This document shows positions 16,781 through 37,680 of a stretch of DNA of 39,043 nt, in pieces (positions within the stretch are counted from its first letter, which is position 1; every line of letters starts with the position of its first letter). The notes beneath the pieces are model-generated. The model was not told the origin of the DNA. It did not search any database and worked only from the letters and a program-made list of their open reading frames with translations. The stretch lies in sequence record AF547987; one strand, 5' to 3'. This DNA comes from Shigella phage Sf6. Made by a program: the position numbers and the translations under genes.

Positions 16781-17938
16781 CTACCTAACCTTCTCATCAA
16801 GCCAATCCGCCCACCACTGCATCATTTCTCTGCGCTTATCGAGATACTGAGCATGGTTGTAAATCCCACGCACAGATCCGCCGTTGGCATGTGCCAGTTG
16901 CACTTCAATAGCGTCAGCAGGCCATTCGTGCTCGTTCATAATCGTGCTGAATTCATGCCTGAATCCGTGACCGCTTTCCAGACCTTCATAGCCGATTTGT
17001 TTGATCACAAGTAGTACAGCGTTCTCGCAAATTGGCTTCTTCTTATCGTTGCGCCCGGCAAAAACAAACTCTGACACTGGTTTAGTGATTGAGCTTAGCG
17101 TAGTGAGAAGTTCAATCACCTGGTCTGACATAGGAACCACATGAATTTTGCGTCCCTTCATCACACTGGCGTCGATAGTGATAATCCTGTTTTCAAAATC
17201 GACGTTCTTCCATTGCATGGAACGAAGCTCTTTCGTTCTTAGGGCTGTGTAGCGTAAAACTTTGGTCGCAATGAGCGATACGATACTTCCTGAAAATGTT
17301 GCAAGTGCTTTGTTGAATGCCGGGATCTGGTCGGCAGGTAAAAATGGGAAGTTTTTCTTGCGGTATCCTTTCATGGCGTCTGCAAGGTCAGGTGCCGGGT
17401 TATATTTAGCCCTTCCGGTGACAATAGCGTAACGGAAAACCTCGCCGCATCTTCTGCGGGCTTTGTTGGCTCGCTCCATTGCACCGCGATCTTCAAATCT
17501 GCGGATTACTTCCAGCAGTTGCATCGGCTCAATATCCTGAATTTCAAGGCCGCCGATGATGGGTAAAATGTCGTCATCAAACATTTTTGCAAGTTCAGTT
17601 GCATAGCCTACTGACCAGACTTGCTTCTTGTGATCGTACCATTCCTTGTAAATCGCACTAAAGGAATTGTTGTTAGACGAAGCCTTTTTCGCCTTTACCG
17701 GATCGATGCCAACCGAGATGTCTTTCCTCGCAGTCCATGCTTTATCCCTTGCCTCCTGCAAAGTCATAAGCGGATATTTTCCGACGGTCAGGATTTTCTC
17801 CTTACCGTCAATCTTGTAGCGAAGCTGCCATACCTTTTTCCCTGACACAGGGACATAAAGGTACAGGCCATTACCATCGAGAAGGCGGTATGGTTTTTCT
17901 TTCGGCTTTGCTGCTTCAATCTGCTTAACGGTGAGCAT
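16781..17938 (-). CDS. int: tyrosine integrase (P4-like family)
   Basis: N-terminus LTVKQIEAAKPKEKPYRL.DG.GLYLYV typical of P4-type integrases; C-terminal catalytic region with HxxR and Y; I chose the ATG at 17938, the track ORF starts at a GTG at 17974. Confidence 0.85.
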   Translation of the reverse strand: MLTVKQIEAAKPKEKPYRLLDGNGLYLYVPVSGKKVWQLRYKIDGKEKILTVGKYPLMTLQEARDKAWTARKDISVGIDPVKAKKASSNNNSFSAIYKEWYDHKKQVWSVGYATELAKMFDDDILPIIGGLEIQDIEPMQLLEVIRRFEDRGAMERANKARRRCGEVFRYAIVTGRAKYNPAPDLADAMKGYRKKNFPFLPADQIPAFNKALATFSGSIVSLIATKVLRYTALRTKELRSMQWKNVDFENRIITIDASVMKGRKIHVVPMSDQVIELLTTLSSITKPVSEFVFAGRNDKKKPICENAVLLVIKQIGYEGLESGHGFRHEFSTIMNEHEWPADAIEVQLAHANGGSVRGIYNHAQYLDKRREMMQWWADWLDEKVR

Positions 17939-18099
17939 GGGTAAAAATCCGGTGGGTAAAATTATTTTATCCACTTTTTACCCGTCATGGAGTGCGGCTG
18001 TCAACGATCTGACGCGAACCATGACGAACTGTGAATCTACGGAAGGCTTGATATTCAGGGGATTTTGCGGACTGGTACGGATGGAGGCGAACTGATAAA

Positions 18100-18895: not shown

Positions 18896-19198
18896 TTAGC
18901 CATGGTTAACCTCCTGCGGAGTAGCCTTTACAAGCACTGGTGTAAATCCATCTTCATTAAGGTTATGAATATAGACTTCCGTTCTCCTGCGCTCTTCAGC
19001 GTTTAATATGGTTTCTGGATCATAAACCCATACTTTCATTCGACTATTCCATGAAGAAATCGCTTCAGATCTAGTTCGTTTTTCTGGTCCTTGGGCACCA
19101 CATTTGCATGACACATAGCGCATTTTCCCTCTGATACTGAATGAGTATCCGATGTTAAGCACAGTGGAACCACAGAATGGGCAGCGATAGAGATTCAT
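18896..19198 (-). CDS. Lar-family restriction alleviation protein (zinc ribbon)
   Basis: 100-aa ORF with CPFCG...C.CGAQGP...EAISSWN pattern typical of the Lar family. Confidence 0.55.
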   Translation of the reverse strand: MNLYRCPFCGSTVLNIGYSFSIRGKMRYVSCKCGAQGPEKRTRSEAISSWNSRMKVWVYDPETILNAEERRRTEVYIHNLNEDGFTPVLVKATPQEVNHG

Positions 19199-20947: not shown

Positions 20948-21427
20948 TTAAATTGCGTGAATAGCGTGACGAGGGAAGGGGAGAGTTACTGGTTCCTCGT
21001 CTGGGTAGATAGGTTTGTTATGTTTGTGCCACTCGACATGACATGACTTGCAGAGCCACATCACATCGGTTGGTTTGCTGTAGTCGCAGTGGTGCGCCTG
21101 TGGTTTACATTCTGATCCGCAGCACTCACATTGTGGTGGTCGGATTAGCTTACCGTCGCGCAAAAAATTACCCACAATGATGTGGGCTTTTCTTTTCCAT
21201 GGGTTGCTCTGAATGAACCGCTTTTTGGCTGCGTTACACCGTTCTCTTCCGCGTTCCGATGATTGATATTCTCTCCTTGCTGATACTCGATGTGGCAATC
21301 CAGCGCGTTCTTTGTCGTATTCAGCCAGGCAAGCCCGGCAAGCGGCAGTTAATCCATCTCTGGATGCTCTTCTGATTTGAAAGTCCCTTTCTTCCTTCTG
21401 TTGATGGCATCTTGAGCAGATTTTCAT
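20948..21427 (-). CDS. HNH endonuclease
   Basis: 159-aa Cys/His-rich ORF with HHCDYSKP...WLCKSCHVEWH motif; AGGAG RBS. Confidence 0.6.
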   Translation of the reverse strand: MKICSRCHQQKEERDFQIRRASRDGLTAACRACLAEYDKERAGLPHRVSARREYQSSERGRERCNAAKKRFIQSNPWKRKAHIIVGNFLRDGKLIRPPQCECCGSECKPQAHHCDYSKPTDVMWLCKSCHVEWHKHNKPIYPDEEPVTLPFPRHAIHAI

Positions 21428-21436
21428 ATTCAGCTC

Positions 21437-21910
21437 CTAGAACGGAATATCCGAATCGTCGAAGTTCATAGGTGGTTCGCTGTGATTCCCATGCTGCTGA
21501 GATTGCTGTCTTTGTTGCTGGCCGTTATTTCGCTGAGGTGAAGACTGTTCATTGCCTCCTTGCTTGCCACCAAGCATTTGCATGGTTCCACCAACGCCTA
21601 CGATAACTTCGGTAGTGAACCTATCCTGTCCGCTTTGATCCTGCCATTTTCTTGTCCGCAATTTGCCTTCAAGATAAACCTCAGAGCCTTTTCGCAGATA
21701 TTCGCTGGCAATTTCTGCCAGTTTCCCGCTCATTACCACGCGGTGCCACTCCGTCTGCTCCTTTTGCTCTCCAGTTTGCTTATCACGCCATTGTTCTGAC
21801 GTAGCAACTGTAAGGTTTGCAAATGCCGTTCCTGATGGTGAATATCTGATTTCTGGATCATGCCCAAGGCGACCAATAATGATCACCTTATTTACGCCTC
21901 TGCTTGCCAT
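21437..21910 (-). CDS. ssb: single-stranded DNA-binding protein
   Basis: OB-fold SSB signature and the acidic C-terminal tail ending DDSDIPF. Confidence 0.9.
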
Positions 21911-22618
21911 TTATGCCGCCTGTTTTAGCTCGTTAACTCTGATGTTCATTACCTGAACGCATTTAGCCTGCGCCTCCTCGTTGCCAGCCATTAATTGCCA
22001 GTCACGCTGATAACGCTCGATGAGTTTTTTCTTGTCAGTTTCTGTTGACGCATAATCGCTGAAGTCTTTCAGGATTTGCTCGCAGTCAACCGATGGAGAT
22101 TTCTGGTTGGTATTTTCTGGTGATGGTTTGTTATCTGATGCTGGGATTGCCCATCCCGGCAGCGATGGAGGGAGCCAGTAAAATCCTGTTCCATCCTTGA
22201 GTTTTGCCCTGTGCCATCCCTGCTTTTTATCGAGAGATGTTTGTGCGAAACCTTCCTCAAGGTTATACAGATACCGACCGATTCCCCACTGAACGGCAGC
22301 GCGCTTCATTGCACCGGAACGACCACCTTTTACGGCTTCTACCTGCGTGTTTTCAGCAGCATCCCATTTGGTTACCCATTCGGAATCAATCCTGATTGAT
22401 ATGCCGCATTCAACGCCTCCGTTGTTGGGAATATCGCGGTATTCATTGCGCCATCCTGCTTTGCCGCAAACATCGTCCAGGCGTTTCATGATTGCCCGGT
22501 TCGTGACATAAGCCAGCACCATAGCCCACACTTTGCCATCGCGTGTTTTACCGCTTTGCTGTATTCGCCATTCGATATCTTCAGGGCTGAATGGCTCATC
22601 GAATTTATTCAAATCCAT
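21911..22618 (-). CDS. Rad52-family single-strand annealing recombinase
   Basis: 235-aa ORF directly upstream of ssb; N-terminal region resembles Rad52/Sak-type annealing proteins. Confidence 0.55.
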   Translation of the reverse strand: MDLNKFDEPFSPEDIEWRIQQSGKTRDGKVWAMVLAYVTNRAIMKRLDDVCGKAGWRNEYRDIPNNGGVECGISIRIDSEWVTKWDAAENTQVEAVKGGRSGAMKRAAVQWGIGRYLYNLEEGFAQTSLDKKQGWHRAKLKDGTGFYWLPPSLPGWAIPASDNKPSPENTNQKSPSVDCEQILKDFSDYASTETDKKKLIERYQRDWQLMAGNEEAQAKCVQVMNIRVNELKQAA

Positions 22619-32886: not shown

Positions 32887-34091
<1,205 letters not shown>

Positions 34092-34641: not shown

Positions 34642-34844
34642 CGTTCTCAGTAAAAACCATTCCAGACATGCTCGTTGAAGCATACGGAAACCAGACAGAA
34701 GTAGCACGCAGACTGAAATGTAGTCGCGGTACGGTCAGAAAATACGTTGATGATAAAGACGGGAAAATGCACGCCATCGTCAACGACGTTCTCATGGTTC
34801 ATCGCGGATGGAGTGAAAGAGATGCGCTATTACGAAAGAATTGA
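34638..34844 (+). CDS. ninH: NinH protein
   Basis: 68-aa ORF starting [32 protein letters not shown], recognised as lambda NinH. Confidence 0.8.
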
Positions 34845-35493
34845 TGGCAGCAAATACCGAAATATTTGGGTAGTTGGCGATCTGCACGGATGCTACACGA
34901 ACCTGATGAAAAAACTGGAGACGATAGGATTCGACACCAAAAAAGACCTGCTTATCTCGGTTGGCGATTTGGTTGATCGCGGTACAGAGAACGTCGAATG
35001 CCTGGAATTAATCACATTCCCCTGGTTCAGAGCTGTACGTGGAAACCATGAGCAAATGATGATTGATGGCTTATCAGAGCGTGGAAACGTCAATCACTGG
35101 CTGCTTAATGGCGGTGGCTGGTTCTTTAATCTCGATTACGACAAAGAAATTCTGGCTAAAGCTCTTGCCCATAAAGCAGGTGAACTTCCGTTAATCATCG
35201 AACTGGTGAGCAAAGGTAAAAAATATGTCATCTGCCACGCCGATTATCCTTGTGATAAATACGAGTTTGGAAAGCCAGTTGATCATCAGCAGGTAATCTG
35301 GAACCGCGAACGAATCAGCAACTCACAAGACGGGATCGTGAAAGAAATCAAAGGCGCGGACACGTTCATCTTTGGTCATACGCCAGCAGTGAAACCACTC
35401 AAGTTTTCCAACCAGATGTATATCGATACCGGCGCAGTGTTCTGCGGAAATCTCACATTGATTCAGGTACAGGGAGAAGGCGCGTGGGCATAA
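34822..35493 (+). CDS. ninI: serine/threonine protein phosphatase (NinI, calcineurin-like)
   Basis: Metallophosphatase motifs GDLHG, GDLVDRG, GNHE; start at MRYYERIDG overlapping ninH. Confidence 0.85.
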
Positions 35494-36002
35494 GAGAACT
35501 AAACCTCACCAAAGAACAGCATGAGTGGCTGAATGGCTGGCTTGAACTGTGGGGCGCATGGGTTTATTCAGGTCGTCTGGAAAAGCGCATGAGCAGCGTA
35601 ATAGCGAAGTTCATGGAGAGCGTAGAGCCGGGAAGAGTTATGACAAGGCCAATGTGCAATGATGATGATGGAATGTTGATTTCTCAGGTCGTCGATTCCG
35701 TCATGTACATTGACAAGAAAGCCTTTGGCATCCTCCTCAGCTACTACGCTCATGGTTCATCTAAGCGAGCAATTGCATCCTACTATCACGCGACTGCAAA
35801 GCCACGCAAGATGTGTGGACGTGGTGGCGAGGGATGGAGAAAACCTTCACTGGCAACCTGTAGAAACGAAATTGACGACATCCTGAAAGCGTCATTATTT
35901 GTTTTATACCAGCCAATGCAAAATGCTTTCAAAATGCGTAAACGTGTTGAGAAAGTTAAGCATGTTGCTGTTAAAAGCCTTGACATGCAATTAGCCATTT
36001 AG
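35484..36002 (+). CDS. Q: late-gene antiterminator Q (non-lambda type)
   Basis: 172-aa GTG-initiated ORF directly upstream of pR'; WGAW and CNDDDG motifs resemble the phage 82/DLP12-type Q family rather than lambda Q. Confidence 0.7.
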
Positions 36003-36009
36003 CCATAAT
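35980..36009 (+). promoter_or_regulatory. late promoter pR' candidate
   Basis: TTGACA at 35980-35985, 18-bp spacer, CATAAT at 36004-36009, immediately after the Q stop. Confidence 0.5.
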
Positions 36010-36020
36010 TAGAAGGTAAG

Positions 36021-36062
36021 CTGCCGTTAGTGACTCTTAAGTTGCAACGGTGGCTTTTTTAT
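36021..36062 (+). terminator. tR'-like terminator candidate downstream of pR'
   Basis: Imperfect hairpin around CCGTT...AACGG followed by GGCTTTTTTATTT; stem assignment uncertain. Confidence 0.4.
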
Positions 36063-36064
36063 TT

Positions 36065-36139
36065 GGGTCAGTCGTATAAAGGTCATTACGGAAGGCTGTT
36101 AACCTTCTTATCGTGGTTCGAGTCCACGCTGTCCCGCCA
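36065..36139 (+). tRNA. tRNA-Asn (anticodon GTT), with two stem mismatches
   Basis: Hand-folded cloverleaf: anticodon arm GAAGG-CTGTTAA-CCTTC, T-arm CGTGG-TTCGAGT-CCACG, 3' CCA; T:T mismatches in acceptor (4:69) and D stems. Confidence 0.55.
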
Positions 36140-36144
36140 AACAT

Positions 36145-36220
36145 GCTGGTTTAGCTCCAATGGTAGAGCAGTCGCCTTGTAAGCGAATGGGTAGCGGTTC
36201 AAGTCCGTTAACCAGCACCA
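36145..36220 (+). tRNA. tRNA-Thr (anticodon TGT)
   Basis: Hand-folded 76-nt cloverleaf: perfect 7-bp acceptor stem GCTGGTT/AACCAGC, D stem GCTC/GAGC, anticodon loop CTTGTAA, T-loop TTCAAGT, 3' ACCA. Confidence 0.7.
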
Positions 36221-36462
36221 TAACTGAGCCGTAGCCACTGGCTATCCTAGATTCATCAGTGATAGTTATGCTGCGGACTTCTACACATGACCTTCGTGAA
36301 AGCGGGTGGCATGAGGTTGCGCTAACAACCTCCTGCCGCTTTGCCCGTGCATATCGGTCACGAACAAATCTGATTACTAAACACAGTAGCCTGGATTTGT
36401 TCTATCAGTAATCGACCTTATTCCTAATTAAATAGAGCAAATCCCCTTATTGGGGGTAAGAC

Positions 36463-36786
36463 ATGAAGATGCCAGAAAAACATGACCTGTTAGCCGCCAT
36501 TCTCGCGGCAAAGGAACAAGGCATCGGGGCAATCCTTGCGTTTGCAATGGCGTACCTTCGCGGCAGATATAATGGCGGTGCGTTTACAAAAACAGTAATC
36601 GACGCAACGATGTGCGCCATTATCGCCTGGTTCATTCGTGACCTTCTCGACTTCGCCGGACTAAGTAGCAATCTCGCTTATATAACGAGCGTGTTCATCG
36701 GCTACATCGGTACTGACTCGATTGGTTCGCTTATCAAACGCTTCGCTGCTAAAAAAGCCGGAGTAGAAGATGGTGGAAATCAATAA
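36463..36786 (+). CDS. S: holin S (class I, dual-start)
   Basis: Begins [34 protein letters not shown] with the Met1-Lys2-Met3 dual start; sdi-like hairpin TCCCC-ttatt-GGGGG upstream. Confidence 0.95.
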
Positions 36787-37246
36787 TCAACGTAAGGCGT
36801 TCCTCGATATGCTGGCGTGGTCAGAGGGGACTGATAACGGACGTCAGAAAACCAGAAATCATGGTTATGACGTCATTGTTGGCGGAGAGCTATTCACTGA
36901 TTACTCCGATCACCCTCGCAAACTTGTCACGCTAAACCCAAAACTCGAATCAACAGCAGCCGGACGTTACCAGCTTCTTTCCCGTTGGTGGGATGCCTAT
37001 CGTAAGCAGCTTGGCCTGAAAGACTTCTCTCCGAAAAGCCAGGACGCCGTGGCACTGCAACAGATTAAAGAACGTGGCGCTTTACCGATGATTGATCGCG
37101 GTGATATTCGTCAGGCAATTGACCGTTGCAGCAATATCTGGGCTTCACTGCCGGGCGCTGGTTATGGTCAGTTCGAGCATAAGGCTGACAGCCTGATTAC
37201 AAAATTTAAAGAAGCAGGCGGAACGGTCAGAGAGATTGATGTATGA
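36770..37246 (+). CDS. R: endolysin R (lytic transglycosylase)
   Basis: 158-aa ORF overlapping the S stop; recognised as lambda R. Confidence 0.95.
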
Positions 37247-37680
37247 GCAGAGTCACCGCAATTATCTCCGCTCTGGTTATTTGCATCATCGTCTGCCTGT
37301 CATGGGCTGTTAATCATTACCGTGATAATGCAATCGCCTACAAAGAGCAGCGCGATAAAGCCACATCCATCATCGCTGATATGCAGAAGCGGCAACATGA
37401 TGTAGCAGAACTTGACGCCAGATACACAAAGGAGCTTGCTGATGCTAACGCGACTATCGAAAGTCTCCGTGCTGATGTTTCTGCTGGTCGTAAACGCCTG
37501 CAAGTCGCCGCCACCTGTGCAAAGTCAACGACCGGAGCCAGCAGCATGGGCGATGGAGAAAGCCCAAGACTTACAGCAGATGCTGAACTCAATTATTACC
37601 GTCTCCGAAGTGGAATCGACAGGATAACCGCGCAGGTTAACTACCTGCAGGAGTACATCAGGACGCAATGCCTTCGATGA
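37243..37680 (+). CDS. Rz: i-spanin Rz
   Basis: N-terminal TM segment ([18 protein letters not shown]) then coiled-coil; overlaps the R stop. Confidence 0.9.
37442..37627 (+). CDS. Rz1: o-spanin Rz1 (lipoprotein embedded in Rz, +1 frame)
   Basis: ATG at 37442 preceded by AAGGAG; lipoprotein signal [20 protein letters not shown] then a proline-rich segment; wholly inside Rz. Confidence 0.75.

Follow-up and report, generated by a model that had tools for sequence, protein, structure and literature searches.

The right-hand part of the Shigella phage Sf6 genome raises the question of what a temperate phage gains from a pair of tRNA genes placed between its late promoter and its lysis genes, and of whether both members of the pair are functional. 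The window considered here is the whole 39,043-base stretch of sequence record AF547987. The two tRNAs are not new. Annotations of them exist for Sf6, phage 21, BTP1, and hundreds of prophages. The genome paper on phage L places Asn and Thr tRNAs of Sf6 at the same site and so describes the very feature analyzed here (PMC8022706). Taken alone the locus matters little, as its tRNAs are annotated and the function of an identical tRNAThr was published in 2025. It is, nonetheless, a compact case of the current idea that phage tRNAs are spare parts for nuclease-cut host tRNAs and not codon helpers alone, and it offers a simple temperate-phage system for questions of tRNAAsn nuclease resistance and Q-dependent read-through. 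On balance, we favor the reading that Sf6 has a functional tRNA pair in the 5′ leader of its Q-dependent late operon, and that the pair serves mainly to replace or top up host tRNAs.

Two tRNA Genes Upstream of the Lysis Cassette

ARAGORN and Rfam both place a tRNAAsn(GUU) gene of 75 nt at 36065–36139 and a tRNAThr(UGU) gene of 76 nt at 36145–36220, each on the plus strand, with the 5-nt spacer AACAT (36140–36144) between them. The initial annotation had read a tandem of Asn(GTT) and Thr(TGT) genes here and named tRNA predictors as the check; ARAGORN called both tRNAs, and the anticodons found by it and by Rfam are the same. The gene order, pR′–tR′–tRNAAsn–tRNAThr–lysis cassette, also agrees with the proposed site between a promoter/terminator candidate and the lysis genes. 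The interval of 35980–36220 assigned to the tRNAs was too wide: they fill 36065–36220, while 35980–36064 is taken up by pR′ and tR′.

Against a gathering score of 29 for Rfam family RF00005, tRNAAsn scores 55.3 bits (E = 2.1e-9) and tRNAThr 61.5 bits (E = 4.2e-11), both across model positions 1–71 of 71. These scores are far beyond chance. A 3′ CCA is encoded in each gene, and the sequences and alignments show that both tRNAs have the tertiary nucleotides U8, A14, G18-G19, U33, a purine at position 37, the T-loop UUCRANU, and C61. The two are genuine phage tRNA genes, Asn-GUU and Thr-UGU, and ARAGORN found no further tRNA in the window. The anticodon stem of tRNAThr is 4 bp long and features the only non-standard pair of this tRNA, G27·A43, with U28-A42 next to it. 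Among the IMG/VR copies the spacer varies at a single position (AACAT or AATAT). Two ORFs that overlap the tRNAs (36030–36182 on the plus strand and 36086–36238 on the minus strand) were dismissed as chance ORFs.

An untranslated leader (36221–36462, plus strand) separates the tRNAs from holin gene S and forms the conserved right-hand “boundary sequence” of the cassette. It is conserved in BTP1, CUS-3, and HK75, with or without tRNAs, and corresponds to the annotated bsq3 of CUS-3. The lysis cassette S/R/Rz follows at 36463–37680 on the plus strand, as defined by ORFs, Pfam, and homologs, and contains the protein genes with which the late operon opens: a lambda-type holin S (36463–36786; Pfam Phage_holin_3_1, E = 2.4e-30), the endolysin R (36770–37246), and the spanin Rz (37243–37680), the latter two identified by their ORFs and annotated homologs. 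The homologs in HK75, CUS-3, and one E. coli prophage are labeled holin, lysozyme, and Rz.

A Late Leader of the Phage 21 Type

Upstream of the tRNAs, a 172-aa ORF (35484–36002, plus strand) encodes a late antiterminator Q of the phage 21 type (Pfam Phage_antitermQ, PF06530; E = 1.1e-25). It matches the Q21 of PDB entries 6JNX and 6P18 at E = 1.6e-92; residues 1–102 are near-identical, with one substitution, and the C-terminal DNA-contacting part (the last third) is diverged. The late promoter pR′ lies at 35980–36009 on the plus strand and reads TTGACA-N18-CATAAT, which gave 11 of 12 matches in the promoter scan; its −35 element is at 35980–35985 and its −10 element at 36004–36009. By position it is homologous to pR′ and the −10 as annotated in phage 21, as well as to the pR′ of the HK75 annotation. 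An 8-bp direct repeat, ATTAGCCA/TTTAGCCA, at 35990–36005 occupies the position of the Q-binding element (QBE) and is positionally homologous to the annotated QBE of phage 21, ATTGAGCA/AATGAGCA. We infer from this position that the repeat is a candidate QBE for Sf6 Q.

The transcript start (near 36016), the pause element TAAGCTG, and the intrinsic terminator tR′ together span 36016–36064 on the plus strand, as judged by RNA folding and phage 21 homology. The tR′ hairpin (36018–36056) is followed by a U-run to 36064 and folds at −20.2 kcal/mol (z = −4.63), a stability equaled by 0 of 200 shuffles. The annotated phage 21 elements match both the pause element and the hairpin exactly. A single T in the T-run is all that sets tR′ apart from the terminator of phage 21 (annotation citing PMID 1704887) and from the 50-nt “aRNA” in record AJ237660, and HK75 labels the same sequence Tr′. 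The terminator scan missed tR′, its criteria probably being unfit for a 17-pair bulged stem, and RNA folding resolved the matter. For phage 21, published experiments underlie the annotation of the −35, QBE, −10, transcription start, sigma-dependent pause element, and terminator, the last of which stops one base short of tRNAAsn. The locus has the sequence components expected of a Q-dependent late leader of this type, namely an upstream Q21-family gene, a promoter with a candidate QBE, a pause element, and a terminator.

Since the stretch from pR′ through tR′ to the tRNAs is homologous to the phage 21 region, the placement of the tRNAs under Q control, as the initial annotation had it, is well supported by homology and scans, and the natural reading is that the Sf6 tRNAs would be expressed late and in a Q-dependent manner. 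RNA polymerase starting at pR′ would normally halt at tR′, one base before tRNAAsn. Once modified by Q, it would pass tR′ and produce one transcript comprising tRNAAsn, tRNAThr, and then the lysis and virion genes, from which host RNase P and 3′-end processing would presumably excise the tRNAs. The mature tRNAs would decode AAC/AAU and ACA (ACU/ACG via wobble) during late protein synthesis. The most likely selected role would be the replacement or reinforcement of the host tRNAs that match them, and the anticodon-stem changes of the phage copies fall at sites recognized by P2 Old and AriB. Within this scheme, we infer the Q-dependent expression, the processing, the function of tRNAAsn, and the relevance of the pair for Sf6 in its own host.

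It is very unlikely that the tRNAs lie outside Q control, either through a promoter of their own or through constitutive expression in lysogens by a leaky tR′. The phage L genome paper leaves an own promoter as an option beside excision from the late mRNA and decides for neither (PMC8022706). In lysogens of related phages, pR′-type promoters are constitutively active (PMC7547250), and any leak at tR′ would then give some tRNA. However, tRNAAsn begins at the base after the tR′ U-run, which leaves no room for a promoter, and a plus-strand scan of 35670–36800 found no promoter-like site other than pR′, and thus no second one between tR′ and the tRNAs. The plus-strand scan also found no terminator-like site between the tRNAs and S. 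The T-run directly preceding tRNAAsn (TTTTTTATTT, followed by GGGTCAG) is found in nearly all of 122 IMG/VR copies, and among these the junction is kept behind at least three different, unrelated terminator hairpins and several different −10 regions. The retention of this junction behind differing upstream elements argues that the tRNAs depend on read-through.

Integrity of tRNAAsn

The initial annotation had noted T:T mismatches in the acceptor and D-stems of the Asn gene and suggested a pseudo-tRNA. Both mismatches exist: the acceptor stem has U4·U69 and the D-stem U13·U22, and these are the only irregular pairs of tRNAAsn. They would suit a decaying pseudo-tRNA or an uncharged tRNA-like decoy that rides with a functional tRNAThr, particularly as a mismatch at 4:69 occurs only in the lambdoid copy, with U·G or C-G in relatives, and as this site is polymorphic among the copies (U·C in three, U·G in one, and G·U in one). 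Belukhina et al. suggest that some viral tRNAs may be competitive inhibitors. Nevertheless, a decaying or decoy tRNAAsn is highly improbable given the 55.3-bit score with full-length model coverage, the encoded CCA, and the retained identity and tertiary nucleotides.

In E. coli, the identity elements are G34-U35-U36 and G73 for AsnRS, and G1-C72, C2-G71, and G35-U36 for ThrRS. All of these are present in the respective Sf6 tRNAs. In addition to G34-U35-U36 and G73, tRNAAsn keeps U8, A14, G18-G19, U33, A37, and the T-loop UUCGAGU.

Covariation within the lambdoid copies alone has little power, as 93 of the 122 IMG/VR tRNAAsn copies are identical; more distant members of the tRNAAsn family were therefore used. 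In this family, represented by five phages, 100 of 105 cells of the stem alignment pair, and compensatory double changes occur at 10 of the 21 stem pairs. The U13·U22 mismatch is a family-wide trait, kept in four of the five members, which include tRNAAsn genes from T4-like and jumbo phages; its conservation in unrelated virulent phages argues against decay. Recurrent variation among the 122 copies is found at D-loop position 20a, at T-loop position 59, and at the 4:69 mismatch. Nucleotide diversity (π) is 0.011–0.014 in the tRNAs and 0.036 in the adjoining S leader, a roughly threefold difference. The identical copies, the lower diversity, and the compensatory changes in the family together indicate purifying selection on the tRNAs.

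Two further observations argue against a passenger role for tRNAAsn. In 6 of 120 loci, for example those of the ST64T/L type, in which the second tRNA is degenerate, Asn is the sole tRNA called by ARAGORN at this slot. Furthermore, NCBI PGAP annotates the gene as tRNAAsn in E. coli RefSeq genomes, with no pseudogene flag. The marks of a pseudo-tRNA (low score, broken stems, lost identity or tertiary nucleotides, and drift) are not seen. Judged on these features of the gene, the pseudo-tRNA idea is not supported, and tRNAAsn is not a pseudo-tRNA.

A Polymorphic Slot Between Conserved Flanks

Between the same flanks, tR′ on the left and the S leader on the right, related phages carry different contents: the tRNA pair itself, inserts of 200 nt (HK75) or 290 nt (CUS-3), Asn with a degenerate second tRNA (ST64T/L), or Asn-Thr-Gly (JLK-2012). 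Such polymorphism would be expected of passive mosaic cargo, a cassette that persists because its flanking boundary sequences promote recombinational exchange and that brings the phage no benefit. Yet the tRNAs are less diverse than their flanks, their stems covary, the Asn-then-Thr tandem recurs in the quite different contexts of P1, phage Cyrano, and a Pseudomonas phage, and the identical tRNAThr of phage 21 has an experimental phenotype. With these observations, mere cargo becomes a most improbable account of the pair, and a functional role remains the favored reading.

The related ideas of an attachment site and of tRNA-dependent lysogeny were rejected. Sf6 tRNAAsn shares only 63% identity with host asnT, and Sf6 tRNAThr only 72% with thrU; both genes are some 18 kb away from the probable integrase ORF (16781–17974). 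As for the alternative contents of the slot, ARAGORN in default mode, with introns allowed, and in tmRNA mode found no tRNA in the HK75 and CUS-3 inserts. Lowered ARAGORN thresholds gave implausible minus-strand matches only, and Rfam gave only a 20-bit local match to a T-arm-like end.

Codon Usage of the Late Genes

When late-gene codon usage is compared with that of the host, a check that the initial annotation had named, the signal is clear for ACA and modest for Asn. ACA occurs at 16.9 per 1000 codons in the late genes and at 5.4 in 44 E. coli K-12 genes, a 3.1-fold difference that ranks third among the 61 codons by absolute excess and fourth by ratio. In the same comparison ACU is enriched 1.9-fold and AAU 1.7-fold, and AAC is not enriched. 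Asn residues are in excess by 10.8 per 1000, which makes Asn the third most over-represented amino acid. At the top of the codon list, which was the part inspected, the combined excess of ACA and ACU (19.8 per 1000) appears to be the largest served by one anticodon.

These figures would fit tRNAs that act by codon supply only, boosting the decoding of ACA, ACU, and AAU, with the nuclease resistance of tRNAThr as a by-product of its foreign sequence. The late genes are AT-richer and over-use these three codons relative to the host, which has one tRNAThr(UGU) gene (thrU). Moreover, the same slot holds other rare-codon tRNAs in lambdoid phages, such as the Gly-UCC of JLK-2012 for GGA and a Leu-UAA-like gene in phage L. 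Against this, AGA, AGG, AUA, UCA, and GGA are enriched even more strongly and have no phage tRNA here, and the tRNAs are absent from many sibling phages, such as HK75 and CUS-3, whose late genes are the same. The host has four gene copies for tRNAAsn(GUU), which serves both codons for Asn; its scarcity is therefore not obvious, and AAC is not enriched. The phage L genome paper (PMC8022706) and a 2026 preprint read such tRNAs as codon supply. However, the anti-nuclease phenotype of the identical phage 21 tRNAThr has been mapped to features of its anticodon stem, and codon supply as the whole explanation seems to us rather unlikely. The codon figures also fit the favored reading, in which the pair replaces or tops up host tRNAs.

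Possible Resistance to tRNA-Cleaving Defense Nucleases

The tRNAThr of phage 21 resists cleavage by P2 Old, a rival prophage's defense nuclease, and protects from Old toxicity, owing to an anticodon stem of reduced length and altered base pairs that include C28U/G42A, although rescue in the published assay was only partial (Govande et al., 2025; PMC12445682). Sf6 tRNAThr is identical to the sole tRNAThr annotated at the phage 21 locus, and ARAGORN found no tRNA beyond the Asn/Thr pair in the 4,890-nt phage 21 record. It has the attributes of tRNAThr21, namely the UGU anticodon, the shortened stem, and an altered paired CNG motif (positions 28–30 and 40–42): nucleotides 27–43 read GUCGC-CUUGUAA-GCGAA in Sf6 and ACUGA-CUUGUAA-UCAGU in host thrU. 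The host tRNAThr(UGU) is P2 Old's primary target (PMC12445682) and a prime target of the PARIS nuclease AriB (PMC12409363).

AriB cuts host tRNALys(UUU), tRNAThr(UGU), and tRNAAsn(GUU) between positions 40 and 41, beside U36-A-A-U39, and tRNAAsn(GUU) is a secondary target (Belukhina et al., 2025; PMC12409363). The U39A change abolishes cleavage of tRNALys, and distal contacts matter too (PMC12409363). At the AriB site (U36-A-A-U39-C40-N41, cut after C40), Sf6 tRNAAsn has UAACCU where the host has UAAUCC, and Sf6 tRNAThr has UAAGCG where the host has UAAUCA; position 39 is thus C in the former and G in the latter. Furthermore, Sf6 tRNAAsn lacks the paired CNG motif of host asnT (GAAGG/CCUUC as opposed to GCGGA/UCCGU). 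Most unrelated tRNAs would by chance carry a nucleotide other than the host's at position 39 or at 28:42. Because a non-U39 is thus expected in most foreign tRNAs, and because distal contacts matter, the substitutions at the AriB site are weak evidence of resistance.

These parallels suggest, tentatively, that the conserved Asn(GUU)-Thr(UGU) tandem found in temperate phages of enterobacteria (Sf6 and other P22-like phages, phage 21, and P1) could be a dedicated counter-defense cassette against OLD-family Toprim tRNases. In such a cassette tRNAAsn would be a nuclease-resistant replacement like tRNAThr21, and the site behind tR′ would provide a Q-gated “late translation insurance”; we hold this to be possible, at less than even confidence. 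Several findings count against the favored reading of the pair as replacements. The PARIS-neutralizing set consists of Lys(UUU), Thr(UGU), and Asn(GUU), of which Sf6 has only Asn and Thr; a full AriB-neutralizing set needs tRNALys(UUU), and ARAGORN found none in the window, nor at any of 120 related loci. Inhibition of RecBCD, as exerted by lambda Gam, is what triggers P2 Old. Pfam and PHROGs searches of early-left ORFs, including part of the small ones, found no Gam or Abc2 homolog among the ORFs scanned; Sf6 may therefore not trigger Old at all. In addition, tRNAs made only late would not protect the translation of early genes, as Q itself has an ACA codon.

In this proposal, P2 Old, PARIS AriB, and their relatives share exactly these two host tRNA targets, and A28-U42, C39, and perhaps the lineage-specific U4·U69 may be the resistance features of tRNAAsn.

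Comparison With Other Phage tRNA Pairs

Phage 21 is among the closest known counterparts. Positions 36065–36220 of Sf6, which cover both tRNAs and the spacer, are identical to 39591–39746 of OL657228.1 (156 of 156 positions), and the two phages agree in gene order (Q–pR′–tR′–Asn–Thr–lysis genes), in the −35 element, and in the tR′ hairpin. They differ in the segment from −35 to −10, which contains the QBE, and in the C-terminal third of Q. The lysis genes differ as well, as Sf6 has the lambda-type S/R/Rz and phage 21 a pinholin with a SAR endolysin. The P22-like phages (Lederbergvirus) BTP1, SPN9CC, HF4s, Kapi1, and SfI, along with E. coli prophages, carry the tRNA pair, annotated as tRNAAsn and tRNAThr, at the same site with 98–100% identity, and their cassettes show no difference of substance from that of Sf6. 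The pair is found in 369 of 5,426 complete E. coli genomes.

The trnA-trnT genes of P1 and the pair of phage Cyrano have the same two anticodons in the same order, 2–5 nt apart. Their tRNAThr is 82–83% identical to that of Sf6, whereas their tRNAAsn belongs to another lineage (59–65% identity) with a fully paired acceptor stem. Unlike the Sf6 pair, that of P1 lies in the C1-controlled ban region, is followed by tciABC, and has no Q-dependent terminator ahead of it. P1 tRNAAsn also keeps the host-like UAAUCA, and P1 tRNAThr keeps a 5-bp stem with paired CNG motifs. A search of a phage collection with the Cyrano pair returned mostly generic tRNA similarity.

Shiga-toxin phages such as 933W carry ileZ-argN-argO between pR′ and stx. 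They resemble Sf6 in having tRNAs for host-rare codons in the Q-dependent late leader of a lambdoid phage, but their anticodons serve AUA and AGA/AGG, their Q and pR′ are of another type, and toxin genes lie downstream.

The PARIS-neutralizing Lys(UUU), Thr(UGU), and Asn(GUU) tRNAs of T5 have two of their three anticodons in common with Sf6. Unlike Sf6, T5 is virulent, carries more than 20 tRNAs, which have promoters of their own and are scattered across about 13 kb, and includes the essential tRNALys, which Sf6 lacks; identity between the T5 and Sf6 tRNAs is 62–66%. The two phages nevertheless share the concept of nuclease-resistant replacement tRNAs. In both, tRNAThr has G39 in place of the host U39, and tRNAAsn is without U39.

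Two tandem tRNA genes between the late terminator and the lysis cassette

Across the window, ARAGORN calls two tRNA genes and no others: tRNA-Asn(GTT) at 36065-36139 (+) and tRNA-Thr(TGT) at 36145-36220 (+). In a search of the whole window, both match the Rfam tRNA model end to end, with 55.3 bits (E = 2e-9) and 61.5 bits (E = 4e-11), respectively, against a gathering score of 29, and both encode the 3′ CCA. This confirms the tandem pair and both anticodons of the initial annotation; the first 85 bases of its interval (35980-36220) instead hold a promoter and a hairpin. The T:T mismatches described for the Asn-like gene are also real, namely U4·U69 in the acceptor stem (window 36068 and 36132) and U13·U22 as the innermost pair of the D stem. 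The one irregular pair of tRNA-Thr is G27·A43, which tops its anticodon stem.

The tRNA pair of Sf6 is already published. The small terminase ORF of the window shows 100% identity to PDB 4DYC/3HEF, and its 623-aa tailspike matches PDB 7SG7 and 2VBK over the full length, all entries for Shigella phage Sf6 proteins; Sf6 NC_005344.1 is listed with 2 tRNAs. The same pair is annotated in the same place, at 98-100% identity, in BTP1, SPN9CC, SfI, Kapi1, phage 21, and others, and is present in 369 of 5,426 complete E. coli genomes, where the NCBI pipeline labels both genes as tRNAs with no pseudogene flag.

Integrity of tRNA-Asn

With its mismatches, tRNA-Asn had been suggested as a possible pseudo-tRNA, a reading that is not supported and that we regard as very improbable. 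The gene retains the universal tertiary nucleotides and a canonical T loop, as well as the anticodon and G73, which form the AsnRS identity set. Its relatives occur in T4-like phages (WFK, PSTRCR_121), a jumbo Erwinia phage, and Klebsiella phage KP13-16. In five sequences of this family, a pair is present in 100 of the 105 stem cells, and compensatory double changes occur at 10 of 21 pairs. U13·U22 is found in four of the five and is thus a family trait, not decay. U4·U69, by contrast, is specific to the lambdoid copy, related phage genes having U·G or C-G at 4:69.

Among 122 lambdoid copies from IMG/VR, 93 are identical, and 4:69 is occupied by U·U in 117 copies, by U·C in three, and by either U·G or G·U in two; variation otherwise recurs at D-loop position 20a and T-loop position 59. 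The untranslated leader next to the pair (240 nt) has a nucleotide diversity of 0.036, compared with 0.011 for tRNA-Asn and 0.014 for tRNA-Thr. Since the search pattern fixed 18 of the 75 tRNA-Asn positions, the figure for that gene is biased low, but after correction it is still about 2.5 times below the leader.

Late promoter, terminator, and Q

A near-consensus sigma-70 promoter (TTGACA-N18-CATAAT, 35980-36009), the late promoter pR', is followed by a 39-nt hairpin and UUUUAUUU at 36018-36064 (-20.2 kcal/mol, z = -4.6), and holin S lies downstream at 36463. The tRNAs therefore lie between pR'/terminator and the lysis cassette, as originally described. The ORF ending at 36002 encodes a phage 21-family Q antiterminator; its residues 1-102 are near-identical to Q21 of PDB 6JNX/6P18 (one substitution), while the C-terminal part has diverged.

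The 156-nt stretch that spans both tRNA genes is identical in phage 21 (OL657228.1, 39591-39746). That record annotates, with literature references, the -35, a two-part Q-binding element, the -10, the transcription start, a sigma-dependent pause element, and a terminator that ends one base upstream of tRNA-Asn; an older phage 21 record annotates a 50-nt terminated transcript. The -35, the TAAGCTG pause element, and the entire hairpin are common to phage 21 and the window, but the stretch between the -35 and -10 differs. There, where phage 21 has its Q-binding element ATTGAGCA/AATGAGCA, the window has an 8-bp direct repeat of different sequence, ATTAGCCA/TTTAGCCA (35990-36005). This candidate Q-binding element would fit the diverged, DNA-contacting C-terminal part of its Q.

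Homology thus gives good support to placement under the late promoter, and from it we infer expression under Q. The promoter scan found no further promoter-like site upstream of the tRNAs, and transcription from a promoter of their own appears highly unlikely. Similarly, no terminator-like site was found by scanning between the tRNAs and holin S. In the 122 copies, tRNA-Asn nearly always starts directly after a terminator T-run, with at least three unrelated hairpins preceding it. Given the phage 21 homology, the Q family, the scans, and this junction, late expression by Q-dependent read-through is the best-supported reading.

A calcineurin-like Ser/Thr phosphatase ORF (NinI-like; 34747-35493, +) overlaps the Q start, as it also does in E. 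coli prophages with the tRNA pair.

Possible roles in codon supply and counter-defence

The codon use of 19 late ORFs (5,733 codons) was compared with that of 44 annotated genes of E. coli K-12 (14,748 codons). ACA occurs at 16.9 per 1000 in the late ORFs versus 5.4 in the host genes, a ratio of 3.1, and only two of the 61 codons have a larger absolute excess. ACU is used 1.9 times and AAU 1.7 times as often as in the host, and Asn residues are in excess by 10.8 per 1000. This pattern suits tRNA-Thr well and tRNA-Asn only moderately. Several even more enriched codons have no tRNA in the window, and we consider codon supply as the sole role rather unlikely.

For tRNA-Thr, a role has already been shown by experiment. 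Old, a nuclease of the P2 prophage, is lethal through excision of the anticodon arm from host tRNA-Thr(UGU), which it cuts at paired CNG motifs; cells can be rescued by phage genes for tRNA-Thr(UGU), and the tRNA-Thr of phage 21 is protective and cleavage-resistant (Govande et al., NAR 2025, PMC12445682). The window tRNA-Thr has that sequence, including G27·A43 and U28-A42 exactly. Its companion tRNA-Asn may be a nuclease-resistant replacement as well. The paired CNG motif of host asnT is absent from it. For PARIS, whose nuclease AriB also cuts host tRNAs, U39A abolishes tRNA-Lys cleavage, and T5 Lys, Thr, and Asn tRNAs together neutralize the system (Belukhina et al., PMC12409363). The window tRNAs carry C39 (Asn) and G39 (Thr). 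Both at 39 and in the CNG motif, however, chance alone would be expected to give a non-host base.

The two genes probably yield functional tRNAs that are Q-gated, replace or top up those of the host, and have a counter-defence component. This assessment, like the lower one for codon supply alone, takes into account that chance expectation, the absence of tRNA-Lys from the window and 120 related loci, an ACA codon within Q itself, and the lack of a Gam or Abc2 homologue that would let Sf6 trigger Old among the early-left ORFs scanned.

In that region, no Gam/Abc2-type RecBCD inhibitor was recognized beside the Rad52-like recombinase (21911-22618) and SSB (21437-21910). Two early-left ORFs, 18896-19198 and 20948-21427 (-), match Lar-like restriction-alleviation families, the latter also an endonuclease family.

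Variation at the tRNA slot

The pair forms a cassette between conserved boundary sequences, with the terminator tR' as its left flank and the S leader as its right flank. With the same flanks, exactly this slot (window 36065-36220) holds unrelated inserts of 200 nt in HK75 (locus L003, about 967-1170) and 290 nt in CUS-3 (locus L002, about 967-1258), in which ARAGORN and Rfam detect no tRNA. That the tRNAs are passive cargo seems very improbable. At its end, the HK75 insert has a T-arm-like GCCGGTTCGATTCCGGC plus CGCCACA-A-CCC, with a 20-bit local match to the tmRNA/tRNA clan; the CUS-3 insert shares the end CGCCACAACCC, its T-arm-like part having diverged.

ST64T and L retain the Asn gene with a diverged second tRNA (L005 1086-1160 in ST64T, the same in L). 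Its first ~18 bases are those of the window tRNA-Thr, and its anticodon region is 4 nt shorter. The phage L annotation makes it a tRNA-Leu(UAA), but ARAGORN does not call it, and it may be a recombinant or decaying gene.

P1 and phage Cyrano also have the Asn-then-Thr order, and Asn and Thr tRNA genes are adjacent in a Pseudomonas phage. JLK-2012 has Asn-Thr-Gly, with tRNA-Gly(UCC) and then tciA/tciB downstream (to 2500); tciA/tciB also follow the Asn-Thr pair of P1. Its tRNA-Thr (L006 1586-1661), a second lambdoid Thr variant, is chimeric: it equals the window tRNA-Thr over bases 1-26 and matches host (E. coli) thrU at 46 of 50 over bases 27-76. The anticodon stem is shortened to 3 base pairs, with A27·C43 and C28·U42 mismatched, and ARAGORN makes no call.

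In the nin region, just upstream of ninG, two overlapping ORFs of 112 and 279 aa (32887-34091, -) resemble orfA/orfB of an IS3-family (IS911-like) insertion element, and their codon use differs from that of the phage.
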